From the IMG/VR virus record IMGVR_UViG_3300028833_000058: 64,000 nucleotides of DNA; one strand, given 5' to 3'. The position numbers were made by a program, and so were the translations under genes. The DNA is from a virus. Taxonomy: Duplodnaviria; Caudoviricetes. Under the pieces are notes generated by a model. That model was given only the letters and a program-made list of their open reading frames with translations. It was not told the DNA's origin and did not search any database. Position 1 is the first letter of the stretch. Each line of letters starts with the position of its first letter. This document shows, piece by piece, positions 13,660-25,168 of this stretch.

Positions 13660-14370
13660 ATGTTATTAGATATCATAAAAGCGATTTTAAGCCTTTTCAG
13701 TAAGCAAGAAGAACATAAACCACAAGTTGTTGCTGAAAAACCAAAATTGCTTACCTACGAGCAAATTTTGGCCATTAACGATAATAAAAATCCAGATATG
13801 TGTAAATATTACATCGATGCTTTAAATAAAGTACTTCCAGAGTATAAAATTGATACAAAATTAAGACTTTCACATTTTTTAGCTCAGATTCTTCATGAAA
13901 GTGGTAACTTTAGGTATAAGTCAGAGAATTTAAACTACTCTGCCACTGCTTTGCGTTCTGTCTTTCCAAAATATTTTAAGACAAACGCTATTGCAAATGA
14001 ATATGCAAGAAAACCAGAGAAGATTGGTAACAGGGTTTATGCCAATCGTATGGGAAACGGTAATGAAACTAGTGGAGATGGGTTCAAATATCGTGGAAGA
14101 GGTCTAATTCAGCTCACAGGTAAGTCAAATTATAGGGCCTGTGGAGAAGATTTAGGTATAGATTTATTAAAATTACCAGATTTGATTATATCAGACCCAG
14201 AAATTTGTGTAAAAACAGCCTGTTGGTTTTGGAATAGGAATAATTTGAATAGTTTAGCTGACCAAGACGATATTAAAACCATAACAAAACGTATAAATGG
14301 TGGTTTTAATGGTCTAGAAGATAGACAAAGGTTGTTGGCACGAGCTAAACAAGTTTTATTTACTTCCTAA
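13660..14370 (+). CDS. Glycoside hydrolase family 19 endolysin
   Basis: HFLAQILHESG, ENLNYS, YANRMGNG, GDGFKYRGRGLIQLTGKSNY and TKRINGGFNGLEDR motifs. Confidence 0.95.
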   Translation: MLLDIIKAILSLFSKQEEHKPQVVAEKPKLLTYEQILAINDNKNPDMCKYYIDALNKVLPEYKIDTKLRLSHFLAQILHESGNFRYKSENLNYSATALRSVFPKYFKTNAIANEYARKPEKIGNRVYANRMGNGNETSGDGFKYRGRGLIQLTGKSNYRACGEDLGIDLLKLPDLIISDPEICVKTACWFWNRNNLNSLADQDDIKTITKRINGGFNGLEDRQRLLARAKQVLFTS

Positions 14371-15381: not shown

Positions 15382-16537
15382 CGTTTACTATCTCAAACAG
15401 CATTTTATTAATACATTCTTTTGGTTTCCAAATGAACTGATGATTTTGATAACACCCACGTAAATTTCTTTCTGAACACCACGGTTTATATTTACATAAG
15501 TTACATTTATATCTCTTATTGAAAAATGTTTCAACATGCTCATGATGTTTTAGACAGGTAAATTCACCATTCAATTTGTTTTTTATTATGTTTTCTTTTT
15601 TAATGTCATCGTGTTCTGGCCAAAAGATGTAAGGAATTAGTTCACACGGTGATTCTTCTCTGCCAAACATCGGTATAAATTCAACTGTTTCACAATACGA
15701 TTTGAAATCATCTTTGTTTATTTTAATATCAATATTGTGTGACATGAAGACATTTAACTCAATTCCATGCCTATTCTTAATTTCATTATAGAAGTTACGA
15801 TAATCGTCAAAGGTAGGCACTTCTGACATACTATTAGAATTATAAGGTTGATATTCGTTAAAAACAAGTGACAATCGTTTGTTTTTATCCATTTCTAATA
15901 ATTTATCAAAGAGAATGACACTATTGTTATTTTTGTCTTCTATGTATTTGTTCATAGAAGATTTAGTCAAAATAGTCTCTATTAACAAATCATCTTCTTT
16001 TACCAATACCTTTTCTAAATTGTTTTGCCAAATTTTTAACGATAAATCATTTTTAAATCTTCCGTGTACATCATAAGAAGTTGCTATGTTGACTAACTTG
16101 TTTTTTTGTGATATGTAATCAAATAAGTTAAATAATCTATCTAATCTTTCTTTTTCTAATATTAAGTTTGAAAACAACGTATTGTGGAGTTTTACTGGCT
16201 TATTAGTGGTTATTTCATAGAGTGAATCAAACAATTTGTAAAAATAATCAAAATATTCTTTCGGCAACACTCCTATTTCACCACCGATAAAATAATGCTT
16301 TAACAATGTTCCGTTAGGTAATCTGTCTATATTTTCATTTAGCCATTGTATTTCATACTCTCCGATTTTTTTAAACTCTTCTAACGACATTAGTTTGTTA
16401 TCGTGTATTGATTTTAAACAACAAAAATCACAATTGTTATTACACTGAGCAAAAGTAAAAGCATAAGGGAGTAATCCTAAAACTTTAGTCTTTTGTACCA
16501 TCTCTATTAAATCGTTAGTACGTTTATCACTTAACAT
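15374..16537 (-). CDS. Radical SAM enzyme with SPASM-like C-terminus (rSAM-5)
   Basis: CNNNCDFC, IGGE, FSNL; C-terminal CNLCKYKPWC...GC. Confidence 0.9.
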   Translation of the reverse strand: MLSDKRTNDLIEMVQKTKVLGLLPYAFTFAQCNNNCDFCCLKSIHDNKLMSLEEFKKIGEYEIQWLNENIDRLPNGTLLKHYFIGGEIGVLPKEYFDYFYKLFDSLYEITTNKPVKLHNTLFSNLILEKERLDRLFNLFDYISQKNKLVNIATSYDVHGRFKNDLSLKIWQNNLEKVLVKEDDLLIETILTKSSMNKYIEDKNNNSVILFDKLLEMDKNKRLSLVFNEYQPYNSNSMSEVPTFDDYRNFYNEIKNRHGIELNVFMSHNIDIKINKDDFKSYCETVEFIPMFGREESPCELIPYIFWPEHDDIKKENIIKNKLNGEFTCLKHHEHVETFFNKRYKCNLCKYKPWCSERNLRGCYQNHQFIWKPKECINKMLFEIVNDE

Positions 16538-17523
16538 TGTAAATTTTCCTTTATTTTGTCAATTAACATTTTTAACCCTGGACACCCTGTTTTATCGAAA
16601 CTTAACTGACAACATTCGCCTCTACATATGTTGTAATAGGAACAAGTTAAACATCTCTCGTTCAATTTTCTTTCTTGTGATATCAATTTCTTATGTAATG
16701 ATTCATTGTACCCATTGTTGTCAACAATGTGAATATTTGATATATTAGGGCAAGTTGCTATAGTACCATCAGTATTAACTGTTATGACATTCTCCATACA
16801 TCTTCTTTCTCTGCAACCAATTGGGTCATTTCCTTTTATAATGTTTTCTAGTTCTTCAAAAAGTTGTATTTTGATGTCATGGTGTTGTAAATTGTAAATA
16901 TATAGTTCTGTTAACCATTTATCTATATCTACGTTATCTGGTTTTATTTTTACAACAGCAGCTCTACCAGTTTCTGTTATTCTTTCAAAATTTATAATTT
17001 TTATTCCTAATTCTTTGAAATAGTTCATTAATTTACTTGGTTTATGTGACAAAGTAAATTTATTCAATGTAACAATTACTTCAACATCGAATCCTTTTTG
17101 TAACAAAGATTTTACATTATTTTCCCAAATGTTACGTTGATTAACTGTTGTGAACCTATAGTCATCAACATCCCAACTTGTTTTTAGAAATTTTTTGTCA
17201 AAAAGTGAAAAAAGTTCTATTAGTTTATCAGTGAGTTTGTATGTTAAGTTTGTTGTAGCACTCCATTTTATAGTTGGGTAACTCTTAATCAATTCGATAT
17301 AATTTTGTATTGTATTGTCTTCTGCTTGAAAAAAAGGTTCTCCACCATGGAATACACACTCTATTTGTTTAAATTTGTTTACATGTGAGTCTAGGATGTT
17401 TCTGATTACATTTACATCAAGTCTTTTTTTATCAGAAAATATACCAGAGTTCATATAGCATCCTTTGCAATTTAAATTACATTGGTTTGTCATACATAGA
17501 TAGATTTTCTTATACTCATTCAT
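16531..17523 (-). CDS. Radical SAM/SPASM enzyme (rSAM-4)
   Basis: CNLNCKGC, FHGGEP, TTNL; SPASM-like CRERRC...DGTIATCP...CLTCSYYNICRGECC. Start placed at 17523 (GGTGA RBS) rather than 17547. Confidence 0.95.
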   Translation of the reverse strand: MNEYKKIYLCMTNQCNLNCKGCYMNSGIFSDKKRLDVNVIRNILDSHVNKFKQIECVFHGGEPFFQAEDNTIQNYIELIKSYPTIKWSATTNLTYKLTDKLIELFSLFDKKFLKTSWDVDDYRFTTVNQRNIWENNVKSLLQKGFDVEVIVTLNKFTLSHKPSKLMNYFKELGIKIINFERITETGRAAVVKIKPDNVDIDKWLTELYIYNLQHHDIKIQLFEELENIIKGNDPIGCRERRCMENVITVNTDGTIATCPNISNIHIVDNNGYNESLHKKLISQERKLNERCLTCSYYNICRGECCQLSFDKTGCPGLKMLIDKIKENLQC

Positions 17524-17527
17524 GTTA

Positions 17528-18472
17528 TCACCATCTTTCGTTTTCAATATCTTCAGCTACTTTTAAAAGGTTTTTACAGCCATCACATTTTATTTTAGTT
17601 AAGTGTTCTGTCCAACAATTTCCATAATATTTACAATTTCCACATCTCTTTATATACTCCATACGTTCTTTTTTAGCGTCAGCTATATAACTTTCTACGT
17701 CATCATACCACTTAAAATACTCTAAATTATCGTTAGTGTAATAAACTGCACCAAACTTTCCATCTGGTGAAATTCTTATACACTGGTCATTCGTAGCTAT
17801 AGGATATGTTCGATTTAAACAAGATTTTAAACCGTTTTCTAAACACAATTTGTAGTCAAAATCCTTTTCGTGAGACGTGTAATAAGTTAAAATATTTATA
17901 AGAAAGTTTTCATATTGGTCTTGTGTGATTTTATATACATCGCCAGTGTTTATACTCGGATAGTATTTTACGAAAGACACCCATTGTATATTCAAACCGT
18001 TATATCCATCTAAAGCATCTTTTGGGGTTTTTCTTATGAGAGAAGGACTAACTATACTCAAAACTGTTAAATTTTCTAAATTTACACCTTTCTTCAGGAT
18101 AGACTTTATATAATCATAATCTGGTCTTTCTTCGTTTAAAGATGTTGAAAAGAAAGTATTCTTGAATATATGTAACTTTGAGATGTCATAGAAGTTCGTA
18201 GTTAAATAATTCTTACATTTGTATTGAATTAATATATCGTTTAACTCTTTTAAGTATGTATTCGGTAAGAGTGTTATCTCTCCACCATACAGATTAAATT
18301 TTTCAATTTCAAAATATTGTGAAATTTGTTTAAGTCTTTGTTTTAATGTATTTAAGTCCAATATTGATTCACCATGGTGATTGTTTAAATAACAAAACTC
18401 ACAATTGTTATTACAAAGGTACGTTGGAAAAATTGAAACGATTATTTTATTTTTCATTCCTGACCCTTTCAT
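17528..18472 (-). CDS. Radical SAM enzyme (rSAM-3)
   Basis: PTYLCNNNCEFC, YGGE, TTNF; C-terminal CGNCKYYGNC...CDGC. The true start may be 18457. Confidence 0.92.
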   Translation of the reverse strand: MKGSGMKNKIIVSIFPTYLCNNNCEFCYLNNHHGESILDLNTLKQRLKQISQYFEIEKFNLYGGEITLLPNTYLKELNDILIQYKCKNYLTTNFYDISKLHIFKNTFFSTSLNEERPDYDYIKSILKKGVNLENLTVLSIVSPSLIRKTPKDALDGYNGLNIQWVSFVKYYPSINTGDVYKITQDQYENFLINILTYYTSHEKDFDYKLCLENGLKSCLNRTYPIATNDQCIRISPDGKFGAVYYTNDNLEYFKWYDDVESYIADAKKERMEYIKRCGNCKYYGNCWTEHLTKIKCDGCKNLLKVAEDIENERW

Positions 18473-19283
18473 AAAATTTTGGAAAGAAAGAACATCTTGT
18501 ATGTAATTTACAGGGAATACAATTTTTATTATACATACATGTAAGACATCTTTTTAAAACATGCGGCTTGTAGTTTTCTGCAAATACACATTTTTCTTGT
18601 ATCGTTCCGTTTGGTAAAATTGTTTTTGTATTGCAATTAAAATTCCAATTTAATATCTGTTCTTTTATTAAATTTTTTATCATCAAATTTTGAATTGTCC
18701 ATTCTTCATCTAATTTACATAACCAATCGTCTACTGTGTTTTGAAAATCGTCATTTAAGTCATTGTCAATGAGACATTCGAAAAGTATACTGTCAATGTT
18801 TTCAAAACTTTTAATGATTTCAATGAGATGTTCTGGATTCATTTTAACAACATCTTTGTCTAACGTTATCAATAGCAATGGTGATTTTTTTAAAAGTTTT
18901 AAGTTATTTAGCCAGATTTTAAACAATTCATTTGACGAAAATCTATTTGGATTCCAACTTGTTGCTACACTCAAGTCATGTTTGTTTATTTCGTCTATAA
19001 TTTGTTTATCTGTAAAGATAAGATTTGTTGTAATAGAGGTTATTACATCTGTATCTAAGATTTCTATAAAAAGTTTCTTATTAAGAGTAGGTTCCCCACC
19101 ATGAAGAATAAAATTTGCTTCTGGATATTTATGTTTTTGGGACAACATTGTTTTGAAAAAAACTTCTTTGTTAAAACTATACGGTTTATTTTTCACTGTA
19201 CAGTGCGAACAGTTTAGATTACATTTCCAACTAGGTACGATGTAAAATGTTAATTCAGATGAGTCCATATTTTGATAAATCAT
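18447..19283 (-). CDS. Radical SAM enzyme (rSAM-2)
   Basis: PSWKCNLNCSHC, HGGEP, TTNL; C-terminal CLTCMYNKNCIPC. Confidence 0.92.
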   Translation of the reverse strand: MIYQNMDSSELTFYIVPSWKCNLNCSHCTVKNKPYSFNKEVFFKTMLSQKHKYPEANFILHGGEPTLNKKLFIEILDTDVITSITTNLIFTDKQIIDEINKHDLSVATSWNPNRFSSNELFKIWLNNLKLLKKSPLLLITLDKDVVKMNPEHLIEIIKSFENIDSILFECLIDNDLNDDFQNTVDDWLCKLDEEWTIQNLMIKNLIKEQILNWNFNCNTKTILPNGTIQEKCVFAENYKPHVLKRCLTCMYNKNCIPCKLHTRCSFFPKFYERVRNEK

Positions 19284-20205
19284 TGTAGTTTTCTTTCATC
19301 CATTTACATTGCTCATTCTTATATTGTTTAGAATAAAATACGTTTAGTGAGCAAGAATTACACAAATGGAACATTTTACATGTTAAACATTTTTCAAAAA
19401 GAACATCTTTTTGTATATTTATTTCATCTTTTGAACTTATAATATCTTCACAATGGTGTTCTATTAATTCTCCAGAGTTATTTACATAAACAACTTTATT
19501 GTATAAGCAATGTTTATACGACTTCGGATATGGACATTTTCCGTTATAAAATGCGTCTAAGCTTTCTAATTGGTCACCATATCCATTTTTTATAATATCT
19601 AAATATAGTTTGATTAACTTATATCTAGGATAGAAAGATTTACTTAACCCAAGTGGCATTTGTTGATTTAATTTAAATGTAGTACCTAGTTTTTTTGCCA
19701 ATTCACCTGCTTTTAGTACTTCGGTTTCATTGTTTTCGTTGACAATGTAAATAAACATTAGTTTTTCATTGTACATTTCATAAAATTTGTTAAAAATTTT
19801 TACAAATTCGTCTTCTGTGAACACTGAATTTTCTCTTCTGTCTTCACCATATTGAAAACTAGTGACTACCCCAACATGAGGGTTAGTAAAAAGATATTCA
19901 AATTTTTCTGGGTCTTTATACCATAGCGTTAAATTAGACGTTAATGACAAATTGTAATCAGTTCCATTCTGTTCTAAACAATTTATCAAGTCTAAAAAAT
20001 ACGTCTTTGGATTAACCAATGGTTCACCACCAGTTATAATTACATCAGATGGTTTATATTCTTTTAAAAACTGTTTTAATTTTTCAGGAACGTATTCGTG
20101 TAAAGGTATATTTAAAAGTTTAGCACTACAAAATGTACAATTAAAGTTACAAACACTAGTTGGTTTGATAATAAGTGTTTTTTTACCAAATTCTTTTTGA
20201 TTCAT
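19255..20205 (-). CDS. Radical SAM enzyme (rSAM-1)
   Basis: IKPTSVCNFNCTFC, TGGEP, TSNL; C-terminal CLTCKMFHLCNSC. Confidence 0.93.
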   Translation of the reverse strand: MNQKEFGKKTLIIKPTSVCNFNCTFCSAKLLNIPLHEYVPEKLKQFLKEYKPSDVIITGGEPLVNPKTYFLDLINCLEQNGTDYNLSLTSNLTLWYKDPEKFEYLFTNPHVGVVTSFQYGEDRRENSVFTEDEFVKIFNKFYEMYNEKLMFIYIVNENNETEVLKAGELAKKLGTTFKLNQQMPLGLSKSFYPRYKLIKLYLDIIKNGYGDQLESLDAFYNGKCPYPKSYKHCLYNKVVYVNNSGELIEHHCEDIISSKDEINIQKDVLFEKCLTCKMFHLCNSCSLNVFYSKQYKNEQCKWMKENYNDLSKYGLI

Positions 20206-20216
20206 GCCAGTAACCT

Positions 20217-20888
20217 TTATACTAATCCAAAAATTCTCACAGAAGGTAAAGATAACATAGCCTTATAAAATCCGAATTCTTTGGATATATTCTTTATAAT
20301 GTATTCGTATAAAACATGCTCATAGTCATTTGTGTAATATAGCCTAATCGCATCACATTCGATTGGATATTTTATTAGTATGTGTTTAATCGTTTCATAA
20401 AAAACAGGTTTTTCCTTTACAATCTTCCCCTTATAGGAATCGTATTCTATTAATTTATTATCTTTATTTTTTTCTAACAAAAATGTTACTTCATCTAAAG
20501 ATATTAAAAATTGTATTATGTCTTTTATTAATTCTTGATTACGATTTCTAAAAATCTTTATTTCATCTTGTGATAGTATTGATTCTCTAAAGATGATTTC
20601 ATTTGATACAAGATTCAATATACATTGATTAAATTGGTCTATACCCTTATCTAACATCAAATTTGCTTTTAAATATGTTAATAACCATAACTCTTTTGTT
20701 TCGTAGTCACAATTTTCAAAATCAAAAGAACAATTTAACTCTAAGTTTCTTATGTAGATGATTGCTGATAAAATCTGGTTATCCACATCTTCAAATTTTA
20801 TGTCATTGGGATTGATTACATACATGTTAGAAGAGTAATCTGTATCTTCAATGTATTCTTCATTCAGTGGTAATCCAGTGTGTTGCAT
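20217..20888 (-). CDS. Hypothetical accessory protein of the radical SAM operon
   Basis: 223-aa ORF with GAAAGGA RBS between the candidate substrate gene and the first rSAM gene; no family recognised. Confidence 0.7.
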   Translation of the reverse strand: MQHTGLPLNEEYIEDTDYSSNMYVINPNDIKFEDVDNQILSAIIYIRNLELNCSFDFENCDYETKELWLLTYLKANLMLDKGIDQFNQCILNLVSNEIIFRESILSQDEIKIFRNRNQELIKDIIQFLISLDEVTFLLEKNKDNKLIEYDSYKGKIVKEKPVFYETIKHILIKYPIECDAIRLYYTNDYEHVLYEYIIKNISKEFGFYKAMLSLPSVRIFGLV

Positions 20889-20900
20889 GTTTTTCCTTTC

Positions 20901-21710
20901 TTATCTTCTGCTTCTATGGTTACTGTGGCAATTACTATGACAGTTAGAATGACACCAATATTTAACAAAAGTTACACAATTACTACCGTTTGGAGTTGAA
21001 GAACTACCATTCCACATCCATGAAGCATTGTTTACATCATCACAGTCTCTTTTAAAGTTGTCTAACTGTTGTTCTACATTTGCTATCGCTTTTATCAATT
21101 TGTTAATAGACATTGATGATATCTTCGTTGTGTTTAACACATACGTTGTATTATTGTTCCAATTTACAGAGCCTAACGGGTCTGATGAATATCTAGTAAC
21201 ATCTGTGTCTTTATTGTTAACTTTTGGTGGTAACTGTTCTGCGGTGCTAGTATATTCGTTTACAGATTGTTCGTTTACACGTGTGATATCAAAAGATTTT
21301 TTAAAATACGCCCATTTTACTTGCTCAATTGGTTTATTTAAATCAGATGGTAAAACTTGTTCTCCAGTTCCAGAAACGCTTTTTATATAAAGTTTTTTAC
21401 ATCTACCAAGTTCTACAAATACTTTTTTTATAAGTTCGTACGTAGTGTTAGCTTCAGGTATTTTGTTAGTATTGATAGTTGTGTCATTGTTTATAACATT
21501 GGCTATATCGGACAACAGTTCATTTCTTGAACATAAATATTTTTTATCAATGGCATCTGGAACAGAAGTAGTTGAATCCCAATAGTTAGTTTTAGGAAGT
21601 ATGTCATTGCATAAACTGTATAATCTGTCTTTAAAAGATGGTACAATTATGTCGTCTTTAGAAGTTATAACAGTGTTACCAGAAAGCTTTTTAGTAGTTA
21701 TTTGTACCAT
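20901..21710 (-). CDS. Candidate radical SAM substrate/precursor protein with C-terminal (CHSN)3-HRSRR tail
   Basis: First gene of the operon, GAGGA RBS; ends YWCHSNCHSNCHSNHRSRR. Confidence 0.75.
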   Translation of the reverse strand: MVQITTKKLSGNTVITSKDDIIVPSFKDRLYSLCNDILPKTNYWDSTTSVPDAIDKKYLCSRNELLSDIANVINNDTTINTNKIPEANTTYELIKKVFVELGRCKKLYIKSVSGTGEQVLPSDLNKPIEQVKWAYFKKSFDITRVNEQSVNEYTSTAEQLPPKVNNKDTDVTRYSSDPLGSVNWNNNTTYVLNTTKISSMSINKLIKAIANVEQQLDNFKRDCDDVNNASWMWNGSSSTPNGSNCVTFVKYWCHSNCHSNCHSNHRSRR

Positions 21711-21742: not shown

Positions 21743-21802
21743 TAGAACTTAACTGAATAACTAGTTTGATTAGAGTATAACTCAAAGTTATGAAATGTAA
21801 AG
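21743..21802 (-). promoter_or_regulatory. Tandem promoter-like elements of the rSAM operon
   Basis: On the - strand: TTTACA (21801-21796)-N16-TATACT (21779-21774), then AGTTCTA (21749-21743), 33 nt before the start. Confidence 0.55.
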
Positions 21803-22858: not shown

Positions 22859-25168
22859 TTAAAAGGATGGCTCCCAATACGTTGTGGTACCGTCAATACT
22901 TCTGATACAAGTATCATTCAAGAGTATACACATATCATAACCAGGATTACTCCAGTTTGAACCAATCGTCATTGTTCCTGTTCCAGATGTGATTGGGAAT
23001 GTACCACCGTACATATTTATATCAAAAGAGTTGAGCGTCATCCATGCGCTAGAAGGAATATTGTCTTTTGTCCATTCGTTGTTATAATCTTGCGCATATA
23101 ATACTTCAACCATTGAACCGCTTTGAGTATATTTGAAGAACACATACATATCCATTCCGTCAAATGTTACACCACTTGCTAATTCTCCAAATATTGGAAC
23201 GTTTGCACCAAACATTTGACTATATGGGTCATTTACATTCCAATAACATAACGAGTTACCTGATATTTCAAAAGCACTCGCTTGTCCTATTGCCCACGAG
23301 CTTGAATCATAACTTAGTTTAACCTTTGTTATAAACTCAAACTCATCTGTTGGTAGAGTATAATCAGATGTAGCATAGTTGCTATAGTCTGTAGAAGATA
23401 ATATACCAGTTGTTGTATCTAATGTAGGAGTTCCTACCAAAGTAATATTAGAGGTTGGCAACGGGTCTAACGTAATCGATTCAGTTTGATTAGAACCTGT
23501 TAAGGTGATTGTTCCAGTTGTAGCTGCTGTTGTTGAAGTTCTTGCCACTGAATAGTCAATGGTTTTACCTGCACCATTTGCGATATTGATTGTATAAGTA
23601 CCACTAGATTTTGTAACAGGTATTTCTATATTACCAACTGTGAACTTTATAGAATCCACAGGGTCATTTGTAATTGAAACTGTTAAAGTTACATAAGATT
23701 GTGGTTCAGAGATACTGACATTTCTCGTTTCTCCTTCTGTGAGGTTATCAACTGTTTGATAATCAGCGATGTTACTACTTGGGAAATATGTTTGATATGG
23801 GAAATCACCTACACCAAAACTTGAGTATGTATTTATACCAGGTACTTGTGGATTCCAATATACATCTGTGCCAGTTTTTATATAACAATCTGCAAGATGA
23901 ATTGTTCCTGAGAATTGACCTGCAGCATTGTCATATCCAATCATATCACCCCAACCAAAATCTGTACGAAGTGTTAAGCTGTTAGAACCTTGTGTGTATG
24001 TTATTCCATCTGTTGACAGATATCCGTCAATAGTCATATTTGTTTCATCTATAACAAATTTAAACCAATATTTAGTATTTGGTGATAAACTGTTTAATCC
24101 AAAATCTAGAAAATTGTAACCATATTCATATTCCATGATTCCTATTGAAGTACCATCAAGTATGACACTGTAATTCATTGGACCATTTGCTCCATAGAAA
24201 AGTCCTTTCCATCCAGTTAAATCTGATGGAGTTGTAAAACAAATAACTGTTTCTATAGGAACAGATGAAGAAGGTTTTTGTACATCATATAAATAGTTAT
24301 TTGAATTAAAGTTTGATACATCACCAGTATAAACATCTAAAGTAGGATTACCTTGAATACTAAAGTTTGAATACTGTCCTTTGTTACTTTTTACAAAATC
24401 TTTATAAGATAAACAAGTAACTATATTTGGGTTCATACTAAAGTTAATTGTGGCAGCACCAATGTCATATAGGATAGTAGTATTAGTTCCACTAAACCCG
24501 TTTTTAACATCATCCCAGTTTTGTAATATACTTTCTAGTGTATATGGGAAGTGAACACTACATCCTGTAACACCTCTTAACATACCGTTAAATTGATTTG
24601 TATATGTGTTTCCGAAACTATTGGTTGTTAAAGCTGGAAAAGATAAAGATTGTAAAGATGTACAATCAGCGAATGCATATTGAAGAGCATTGTCTGAAGT
24701 AATAGATGATAAAAGTGGCAAAGAAACAGAAGTGAGTGATGAACAACCCTCAAAAATATCATAAAAACAGCTTGAACCAGATAAACTTGTTAAACTTGGA
24801 AAAGACGCTGATGTTAAATTTGAACAACCCATAAAAGTTTGATAACAAGCTTTTTCGTTTGATACACTAGTTAAGTCTGGGAAAGAAACTGTGGAAATAG
24901 TGCTGTTAGGAGCATGTTCATACCAAACACCACCAAATTGATTATACAATACACGACTTCCAATATCCCGAACACCTGTGAATACTAAATTTGTAGTAAC
25001 TCCAGATGGGTTTTGTAATACACCATTAGAATCTACATTACCAAGCAGACCGTCAAGAGTGGCACCATATTTAGTAGAAGTACCACCGCCACCTTCTTGC
25101 ATAAGAATGGCTTTACCATCGTCTAAAATTACTTCACCTGATGTATTAACTAAAACTTTTGTTGTCAT
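22859..25168 (-). CDS. LRR plus lectin-like modules, putative receptor-binding protein
   Basis: FMGCSNLTSASFPSL-type repeats; shared N-terminal motif; segments homologous to both 5892-6746 and 6757-9063. Confidence 0.75.
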   Translation of the reverse strand: MTTKVLVNTSGEVILDDGKAILMQEGGGGTSTKYGATLDGLLGNVDSNGVLQNPSGVTTNLVFTGVRDIGSRVLYNQFGGVWYEHAPNSTISTVSFPDLTSVSNEKACYQTFMGCSNLTSASFPSLTSLSGSSCFYDIFEGCSSLTSVSLPLLSSITSDNALQYAFADCTSLQSLSFPALTTNSFGNTYTNQFNGMLRGVTGCSVHFPYTLESILQNWDDVKNGFSGTNTTILYDIGAATINFSMNPNIVTCLSYKDFVKSNKGQYSNFSIQGNPTLDVYTGDVSNFNSNNYLYDVQKPSSSVPIETVICFTTPSDLTGWKGLFYGANGPMNYSVILDGTSIGIMEYEYGYNFLDFGLNSLSPNTKYWFKFVIDETNMTIDGYLSTDGITYTQGSNSLTLRTDFGWGDMIGYDNAAGQFSGTIHLADCYIKTGTDVYWNPQVPGINTYSSFGVGDFPYQTYFPSSNIADYQTVDNLTEGETRNVSISEPQSYVTLTVSITNDPVDSIKFTVGNIEIPVTKSSGTYTINIANGAGKTIDYSVARTSTTAATTGTITLTGSNQTESITLDPLPTSNITLVGTPTLDTTTGILSSTDYSNYATSDYTLPTDEFEFITKVKLSYDSSSWAIGQASAFEISGNSLCYWNVNDPYSQMFGANVPIFGELASGVTFDGMDMYVFFKYTQSGSMVEVLYAQDYNNEWTKDNIPSSAWMTLNSFDINMYGGTFPITSGTGTMTIGSNWSNPGYDMCILLNDTCIRSIDGTTTYWEPSF

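Follow-up and report, generated by a model that had tools for sequence, protein, structure and literature searches.

The DNA analysed here (the window) is a stretch of 64,000 nucleotides, part of a 246,429-bp contig from a sheep gut metagenome, and its phage is jumbo myovirus-like. The minus strand of the window carries an operon in which gene A is followed by gene B and six radical SAM (rSAM) genes, R1–R6. Tail-fibre and baseplate genes lie upstream of this operon, with a protein matching a tail-fibre PHROG encoded two genes upstream of A, while a convergent GH19 endolysin gene is situated downstream. The features of the operon are as follows:

20901..21710, minus strand: gene A (P0001), open reading frame with translation; 269-aa putative tail-fibre-associated protein, the proposed substrate
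20904..20960, minus strand: conserved tail of A, Y251–R269, Y-W-(C-H-S-N)x3-H-R-S-R-R-stop; proposed modification site
20217..20888, minus strand: gene B, 223-aa acidic protein with a confident α/β model; located directly behind A in most loci as its partner
19255..20205, minus strand: R1, radical SAM/SPASM, 316 aa, core orthogroup; PF04055 at 55.2 bits
18447..19283, minus strand: R2, radical SAM/SPASM, 278 aa; PF04055 at 31.3 bits
17528..18472, minus strand: R3, radical SAM, 314 aa; PF04055 at 34.4 bits, 4–7 conserved C-terminal Cys
16531..17547, minus strand: R4, radical SAM/SPASM, core orthogroup, 338 aa from a TTG; PF04055 at 31.7 bits
15374..16537, minus strand: R5, radical SAM/SPASM, 387 aa, orthogroup specific to the gut clade; PF04055 at 21.1 bits
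14356..15381, minus strand: R6, radical SAM/SPASM, 341 aa, core orthogroup; no Pfam match

The A and B genes are separated by 12 nt, and from B through R6 neighbouring genes either overlap or are spaced by no more than 11 nt. This spacing leaves no room for a peptidase, transporter or RRE gene within the operon of the window, and the Pfam and NCBIfam searches detected no PqqD/RRE, peptidase or transporter family in its operon. Gene B matched no NCBIfam model and is without known family. With the gathering score of PF04055 at 29.5, R1–R4 lie above and R5 lies below this mark. R4 probably starts at an ATG eight codons further in, for a protein of 330 aa, as in the orthologues.

All six enzymes contain a CxxxCxxC motif within 40 residues of the start as well as a Cys-rich C-terminus, and the motif is invariant in every orthologue of R1–R6. 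Furthermore, seven C-terminal Cys residues are invariant in R1 (11 sequences), R2 (6), R4 (9), R5 (9) and R6 (9), and R3 possesses four invariant and three partly conserved ones. The seven-Cys pattern in five of the six orthogroups corresponds to a SPASM signature, from which two auxiliary 4Fe-4S clusters are predicted. BLAST comparison separated the enzymes into six orthogroups of one-to-one orthologues, which share 45–73% identity for R1–R4 and R6; R5 is far more divergent, with ~27–30% between clades. The paralogues R1–R6 are at most ~30% identical among themselves. Combined, the one-to-one orthology and the low identity of the paralogues show that the set is ancient and that each member has been kept separately. 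Local duplication is limited to R5 (two copies in L002/L012, four in L010) and R1 (two copies).

None of R1–R6 reached the cut-off of any curated maturase model in NCBIfam, the scores being weak and generic to many peptide maturases. The best scores of R4 were obtained with anSME (60 bits, cut-off 349) and PapB (58 bits, cut-off 340), and its nearest solved sequence is CteB, with an E-value of 8e-4 over 67 residues. For R1 and R6 there was no match among the PDB sequences, and PADLOC returned only a generic viperin-core similarity.

The tail of A attracted attention through its three C-H-S-N units, which span 20919–20954. The sequence-only reading had given their codons as TGT CAT TCT AAC / TGT CAT AGT AAT / TGC CAC AGT AAC, exactly as found in the reverse complement of 20901–20990. 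The pairwise DNA identity of the 12-nt units is 75%, 75% and 67%, serine is drawn from both codon families, and the C-H-S-N motif of A occurs only once among the real open reading frames of the whole window. The same reading had taken these codon differences as a sign of selection at the protein level. This claim is strongly borne out in 15 loci, where TGT/TGC, CAT/CAC and the six Arg codons interchange and synonymous sites vary freely under fixed Cys, His and Arg; conservation among homologues is indeed a far stronger argument for selection on the tail than codon differences within one gene.

Searches against Pfam, PHROG and NCBIfam gave zero family matches for A, and judged from its sequence this protein is a member of a new family. 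A word-indexed search with A found five relatives of 69–35% identity, and an exhaustive profile search over 1.84 billion representatives found 20. Megablast with the operon and tblastn with A against 50,697 deposited phages gave zero matches. Scanning IMG/VR with the A sequence alone returned zero loci, and scanning it with the A-family alignment returned two. A degenerate tail pattern applied to 185,579 species genomes matched 25 times, close to the ~17 expected by chance, and only one of these matches was real. It lies in a 10.9-kb sequence binned as Bdellovibrionaceae (L038), which is probably phage DNA. The tail comparison below covers 26 homologous tails from gut metagenomes, IMG/VR and cultured Agrobacterium, Ralstonia, Burkholderia and Pseudomonas jumbo phages.

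The closer relatives of A can be aligned over the full protein. Among the distant homologues, whose bodies fall to ~20% identity, the tail is the sole conserved block, and the homologue alignment proposed earlier as a check did confine conservation there to the last ~17–20 residues. The homologues are 178 to 304 aa long, with a body that varies and a tail that is kept, and two A paralogues stand in tandem in locus L008. The consensus of the 26 tails is (C-H-x-[N/S]) repeated two to four times, followed by R-x-R-R-stop. Across the profile-search set, Y251, C253, H254, N256, C257, R266, R268 and R269 are invariant; when more distant members are added, C253, H254, C257, R266, R268 and R269 remain so. 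The tails of the family contain regularly spaced Cys residues, the number of units varies between two and four, and three homologues lack the third Cys. In the second or third unit, Trp (P0007) or Tyr (P0012 and P0014) can take the place of His, and a non-aromatic replacement was never seen. N, S and D predominate at position 4 of the unit, and A, H and Q are confined to the last unit.

These patterns bear on the proposal that the tail offers aromatic-X-X sites to cyclophane-forming enzymes. The H-x-[N/S/D] part of the proposal is supported, as this motif occurs two to four times in each of the 26 tails, whereas W-C-H and H-R-S, which had been listed with it, are not conserved outside the close clade. 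In the same way, the W-M-W-N segment upstream of the tail is present in A but is kept only among closer relatives. The aromatic-only replacement of His together with N, S or D two residues later would fit an aromatic-to-Cβ three-residue cyclophane, and the invariant Cys would fit thioether formation or an intermolecular linkage.

The association of the tail with the enzymes was then followed across loci. Gene A lies beside several rSAM genes in 13 of the 13 loci with enough flanking DNA (the window, L001, L002, L003, L005, L010, L012, L038/L009, L039, L040, Atu_ph07, RSF1 and DT01), and SURPRISE13 has a matching arrangement according to the annotation of its record. The number of rSAM genes per locus ranges from four to at least nine around a core of R1, R4 and R6 orthologues: six in the window, L001 (wolf gut, 74 kb), L003, L005 and L006, seven in L002 and L012 (IMG/VR contig, 231.6 kb), and at least nine in L010. 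It had been suggested that there are about as many candidate sites as enzymes, which is not generally the case, given two to four units against four to at least nine enzymes. A one-to-one correspondence of unit and enzyme numbers was rejected, since loci with 2.5 and 3 units both carry six enzymes. A B homologue of 223–290 aa is present in most loci and was not recognised in RSF1, SURPRISE13 and L040. None of the loci examined yielded a peptidase or a transporter.

The relatives of R4 form 76 clusters, the majority on large contigs of phages; many of these contigs measure 100–480 kb, the largest being 480 kb. The search starting from R4 recovered the same tail even where the body of A is unrecognisable: two distant R4 members (36% and 32% identity) adjoin proteins with this tail in L039 and L040. 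The gene order in L039 is R6-like, A-like, B-like, then R3-, R1-, R4- and R2-like, and in L040 it is R4-like, a 180-aa A-like protein, R6-like, another rSAM and R1-like. L038, equivalent to L009, contains an R4-like gene, A, a possible B-like gene (~20% identity in the alignment, no BLAST match) and a further three rSAM genes, among them R1- and R6-like ones.

With tblastn, R4 matched 15 deposited jumbo-phage records, and the relatives in cultured phages surfaced only through this R4 search. The cassette is found in Atu_ph07, RSF1/RSL2, FLC6/8, SURPRISE13, Phosso and pPa_SNUABM_DT01, where its genes are annotated as 'hypothetical protein', 'radical SAM', 'Fe-S oxidoreductase' or 'MoaA'. In Atu_ph07, the order is cupin gp172, R4-like gp171, A-like gp170, B-like gp169 and R6-like gp168, followed by two genes without assignment, R1-like gp165 and an R3-like fragment. 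The gp170 protein comprises 296 aa and ends in three C-H-x-S units and R-S-R-R. RSF1 (Ralstonia), SURPRISE13 (Burkholderia) and pPa_SNUABM_DT01 (Pseudomonas) share a cupin, an R4-like enzyme and an A-like protein of 178–186 aa with a similar tail; further rSAM genes were identified by translation in RSF1 and DT01 and by record annotation in SURPRISE13. In the Ralstonia phages RP12/RP31, the tables give a different rSAM arrangement.

The genomic setting of the cassette points to tail fibres. In six loci (L039, L040, Atu_ph07, L010, RSF1 and DT01), tail or tail-fibre proteins recognised by PHROGs directly adjoin it. In addition, gp170 was identified among the proteins of purified Atu_ph07 virions, with a mass of 31.89 kDa, 8 unique peptides and 35.16% coverage (PMC6102473). 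The masses of gp170, gp176 and gp177 recomputed by us equal the values in the published table exactly, and therefore the numbering of the record corresponds to that of the table. The same virion list contains neither the enzymes gp171, gp168 and gp165 nor gp169, the homologue of B (PMC6102473). The virion location is thus that of one distant homologue, gp170 of Atu_ph07, and not of the protein of the window's phage.

The gel behaviour of gp170 is of additional interest. It was found in gel bands 1–9 and was most abundant in band 1, where proteins of 87–139 kDa peak, while proteins of 30–32 kDa peak in bands 7–8 (PMC6102473). Despite its mass of 31.89 kDa, gp170 therefore runs mostly as a high-mass species. 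However, the loading buffer as described was without reductant (PMC6102473), and all three Cys residues of gp170 sit in the tail, so the high-mass species could be a disulfide-linked multimer instead of an enzymatic cross-link. Such a disulfide-linked multimer would mean that at least some of the tail thiols are free.

To describe the two non-enzymatic proteins, structure models were predicted. The AF2 model of A, based on 19 sequences, has a pLDDT of 65 and a pTM of 0.69, and residues 254–269, with pLDDT below 50, are predicted to be disordered, as would be expected of an unmodified flexible end. B is modelled with a pLDDT of 86 and a pTM of 0.85. The A–B complex prediction gave an ipSAE of 0.53 compared with 0.00 for the best control, the runs sharing at least 52% of contacts with a partner pLDDT of at least 79. 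Of 80 solved complexes, 58 pass the ipSAE mark applied, as do 2 of 110 mismatched pairs, yet the range up to 0.60 holds just 7 of the 80 solved complexes and both of the passing mismatches. Together with the adjacency of A and B in most loci, this weak complex prediction lends modest support to a binding of B to A. In Foldseek, the A model found no match in the PDB at E≤0.001; its best BFVD match, to uncharacterised phage proteins, has an E-value of 5e-3, and its best VIA match, to generic helical bundles, a Z of 5.0. For the B model, the best Foldseek E-value is 0.24, the TM in the ESM Atlas is at most 0.32, and the best VIA Z of 3.6 falls on partial barrels including some rSAM cores, which is noise level. 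Profiles built from the A and B alignments found nothing in the PDB below an E-value of 0.15. This lack of matches does not show that the folds of A and B are new.

Taken together, we consider it reasonably probable that A belongs to the virion, in association with the tail fibre, and that several SPASM enzymes covalently modify its C-terminal tail. The tail is proposed as the modification site on the basis of its conservation, its linkage to the enzymes, the fibre-gene setting and the presence of one homologue in virions without the enzymes. The disordered tail, with R-x-R-R at the carboxyl end, would be the substrate of the downstream R1–R6, which would act in the cytoplasm of the host at a late stage of infection, prior to fibre assembly or while it proceeds. 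Several non-redundant enzymes suggest more than one reaction type, and each orthogroup may be responsible for a different covalent change in the tail. The likeliest changes would be a cross-link that joins His, or another aromatic residue, to the Cβ of N, S or D two residues on as a three-residue cyclophane, and/or a Cys thioether. Protein B would be a non-virion helper, probably a presenter or chaperone that holds A for the enzymes. The purpose may be a fibre tip that is rigid and resists proteases and redox conditions, or one that is locked covalently. The product is probably a modified virion protein and not a small RiPP.

In comparison with known rSAM systems, the triceptides (HaaB, HtkB, XncB, OscB, ChlB) resemble the cassette in that an rSAM/SPASM enzyme acts on repeated aromatic-X-X motifs near a C-terminus, here H/W/Y-x-N/S/D. 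In triceptides the cross-link joins an aromatic residue to the Cβ of the third residue, and three-residue cyclophane synthases do accept His, as HaaB on H-A-A and HtkB on H-T-K (PMC11499958). Unlike the short leader–core peptides of that class, the substrate here would be a phage-encoded virion protein of 178–304 aa; moreover, Cys precedes the units, and there are four to at least nine distinct enzymes instead of one. With the 3-CyFE models the enzymes scored 15–45 bits; the best scores were 45.1 bits for AmcB (cut-off 425), 43.1 for YhhB (cut-off 445), 28.6 for GrrM/OscB (cut-off 310) and 26.8 for FxsB (cut-off 370), none of which reaches its cut-off.

A second likeness concerns the thioether maturases (PapB, CteB, sactisynthases and NxxcB), which also act on Cys-rich cores with regular Cys spacing. 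PapB is among the top matches of R4 and CteB is its nearest solved sequence, and the C-x-x-N of the tail mirrors the N-x-x-C β-thioether motif. However, R4 remains far below the PapB cut-off (58 compared with 340 bits), and the present system differs in that His is as invariant as Cys, multiple non-redundant enzymes are present and the substrate would be a virus-particle protein. A parallel for a substrate retained after maturation is offered by QhpD/QhpC, in which Cys residues of a protein subunit are cross-linked by an rSAM/SPASM enzyme and the subunit remains in the final assembly. The resemblance lies in this retention of the matured subunit; unlike the phage cassette, QhpD is a single enzyme which forms Cys-Asp/Glu thioethers in a cellular substrate, the γ subunit of quinohemoprotein amine dehydrogenase. 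R4 scored 30 bits with the QhpD model (cut-off 453).

Several alternatives have to be weighed against a covalently modified tail, although none accounts for all of the observations equally well. The tail may instead be a Cys/His metal site for Zn, Fe or Cu which stabilises or trimerises the fibre protein, with the rSAM enzymes acting on another fibre protein, a sugar or a nucleotide. Cys and His alternating at fixed spacing are typical metal ligands, a variable unit number is common in metal-binding tails, the tail modelled alone is disordered, and phage fibres do use His-coordinated metal ions. Nevertheless, we regard this explanation as unlikely. The replacement of His by Trp or Tyr in three homologues favours an aromatic motif over a pure metal site, and the third Cys can be missing altogether. 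Furthermore, metal binding assigns no function to the invariant R-x-R-R or to the N/S/D at position 4, and the tail co-occurs in every locus with SPASM enzymes, which are peptide or protein maturases, even where the body of A is unrecognisable.

The HXS system of bacteria (HxsA–D) suggests another explanation, in which a maturation of about +8 Da on an S-H-x-S-type unit yields a basic, His-rich tail that acts on nucleic acid or the envelope at ejection, or counters HXS defence, instead of serving as a structural staple. HxsA is a protein of ~214 aa matured by two rSAM enzymes and a small helper, with a gain of 8 Da on the unit S-H-R-S-S, of which His and Ser are essential (PMC13128918). HxsA also serves as a precedent for the maturation of an H-x-S repeat protein by rSAM enzymes, which favours a modified tail of A. 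Its combination of a folded protein of ~200 aa with His-x-Ser repeats, more than one rSAM enzyme and a small helper may have a counterpart in the cassette. The tails of the Proteobacteria phages Atu_ph07, RSF1, SURPRISE13 and DT01 contain three exact H-x-S units interleaved with Cys, and that of the window, with H-S-N three times, ends with H-R-S; HXS is also common in Pseudomonadota, the hosts of the cassette-bearing cultured phages. In contrast, HXS is bacterial, defensive and periplasmic and has a peptidoglycan-binding domain, and its repeats are internal and defined by a motif without Cys. Here the repeats are C-terminal, Cys is invariant, and the tails of the gut clade read H-x-N. The family searches found no HxsA or HxsD match, signal peptide or peptidoglycan-binding domain, and no significant sequence relation of HxsA–D to the cassette proteins emerged from the Pfam and NCBIfam models. 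The HxsB and HxsC models scored at most 24 bits against cut-offs of 268–370 (HxsC 23.8 and 20.8, cut-off 267.9; HxsB 20.1, cut-off 370). HXS is therefore an analogy and not a membership, and we judge this explanation to be quite improbable.

Even less probable, indeed very unlikely, is a classical RiPP, in which the 250-aa body of A is a leader and the modified tail is cleaved and freed at lysis as a bioactive peptide (antimicrobial or signal): a C-terminal core adjoining rSAM/SPASM enzymes is the standard layout, the substrate paralogues of L008 are in tandem and nearby lysis genes could stand in for a transporter, but no peptidase or transporter occurs in any of the loci, the short precursor with conserved leader and variable core of such clusters is reversed here into a long hypervariable 'leader' and an invariant core, the basic R-x-R-R lies at the very end and not at a leader–core junction, gp170 of Atu_ph07 was recovered from virions at 35% coverage, and the cassette is always embedded among tail-fibre genes.

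Returning to modification of the tail by the SPASM enzymes, a more specific version would be that they staple the tails of a fibre-tip protein covalently, inside each chain and possibly also across the chains of a multimer, to yield an SDS- and heat-resistant virion component. We put this forward only tentatively and regard it as doubtful. If true, radical cross-linking by enzymes would for the first time be seen in a structural protein of a virus, and it would be a trait conserved in many jumbo phages that demands up to nine dedicated iron-sulfur enzymes per infection.

In the literature searched on phage rSAM, RiPP and tail-fibre combinations, we found no description of the cassette. We infer that it is rSAM/SPASM protein maturation in a new form, being phage-encoded, using many enzymes and targeting a virion protein. 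So far, such maturation concerns small ribosomal peptides and a few cellular proteins; a component of a virus particle has not been described as its target, nor has a tail of ~17 residues on which four to nine distinct enzymes converge. If true, this would represent a new class of post-translational chemistry in phage assembly, possibly with new enzyme reactions on Cys-His units, and a phage-side counterpart to the bacterial HXS defence with its rSAM-matured H-x-S repeat protein. The cassette is widespread in jumbo phages, including tractable ones in culture, and since cultured phages carry it, the proposal can be put to the test in strains already available, and even with proteomic data already acquired.

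Two sheep-gut metatranscriptome libraries contain contigs that are identical with A over 20888–21064, 21247–21397 and 21453–21650, and contigs from these libraries also match parts of R4 and R5. As DNA carry-over is possible in these libraries, this is only a hint that the cassette is expressed. A sigma-70-like site at 21774–21801 upstream of A was given no weight, since 56 such sites occur compared with 58.7 in shuffled sequence. A strain of ~94% identity from another gut metagenome carries three indels, all of them non-coding, in the A–B spacer, in the B–R1 spacer and just upstream of A.

In the public annotation, the CxxxCxxC motif was left upstream of the called start in R4, one of the six radical SAM (rSAM) enzymes encoded downstream of A and its partner B, as well as in some of its orthologues, namely P0024 (307 aa) and the copies from L001 (wolf gut) and from the relative L010. 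Because of these start positions, the R4-type proteins as publicly called lack a radical SAM cluster, and they carry no Pfam label.

Window 16531-17547, minus strand: R4, with a TTG start versus an ATG eight codons further in

The true start of R4 in the window is likely the ATG, which would give a protein of 330 aa, close to the 329-aa orthologues.

The number of rSAM genes varies among the relatives. In L010, an array follows A and B.

L010:2696-11965: rSAM array

It comprises at least nine genes: two R1 copies, one each of R2, R3 and R4, and four R5-type copies that have diverged. The contig stops short of any R6. L002 and the IMG/VR contig L012 each have two copies of R5. The Proteobacteria-phage versions of the cassette lack R5. 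In the jumbo phages of Agrobacterium, Ralstonia, Burkholderia and Pseudomonas, the R4-like enzyme is always preceded by a small cupin gene, and the cluster of Ralstonia phage RSF1 additionally contains a 2OG-Fe(II) oxygenase.

Cupin or 2OG-Fe(II) oxygenase genes:
L041:8409-8993
L042:8472-9008 and 17883-18428
L043:6498-7004
L044:6472-7008

The sheep-gut phage possesses neither gene. This pattern suggests additional oxidative steps in the versions that carry them.

The only match from the genome collection was L038 (DDTZ01000065.1), a 10.9-kb contig in a Bdellovibrionaceae MAG bin that encodes an R4-like enzyme, A, a possible B-like protein and more rSAM enzymes. By gene content it looks like phage DNA; therefore, the binning may be wrong, or the contig may be a prophage fragment.

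For the A gene, three exact-match pieces (window 20888-21650) were found in contigs of two sheep-gut metatranscriptome libraries, including its tail-coding end. In a strain of about 94% identity from another gut metagenome, indels are confined to intergenic spacers, at 20215, 20890 and 21737. L008, a short contig that does not reach the enzyme region, carries two diverged tandem A paralogues separated by 6 nt, each with a C-H repeat tail.

L008:38-1666: P0023 (304 aa) and P0022 (235 aa)

Further genes lie around the cassette.

Window 13660-14370, plus strand: GH19-type endolysin (PF00182, 53.6 bits)
Window 22859-25168, minus strand: 769-aa protein, upstream of A
L005:406-810: IS200/IS605-type Y1 transposase

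The endolysin gene is convergent with the end of the rSAM operon, an arrangement also kept in L001, L005 and L006, and a holin lies immediately upstream of A in L002 and L007. Between the 769-aa gene and A lie two small ORFs on the minus strand and one of 159 aa on the plus strand. The 769-aa product, which may be a receptor-binding fibre component, had no match in PHROG and showed a BspA-type leucine-rich repeat at 26.8 bits, slightly below the Pfam cut-off of 27.7. In L005, one close relative, the transposase gene is situated directly upstream of the module.
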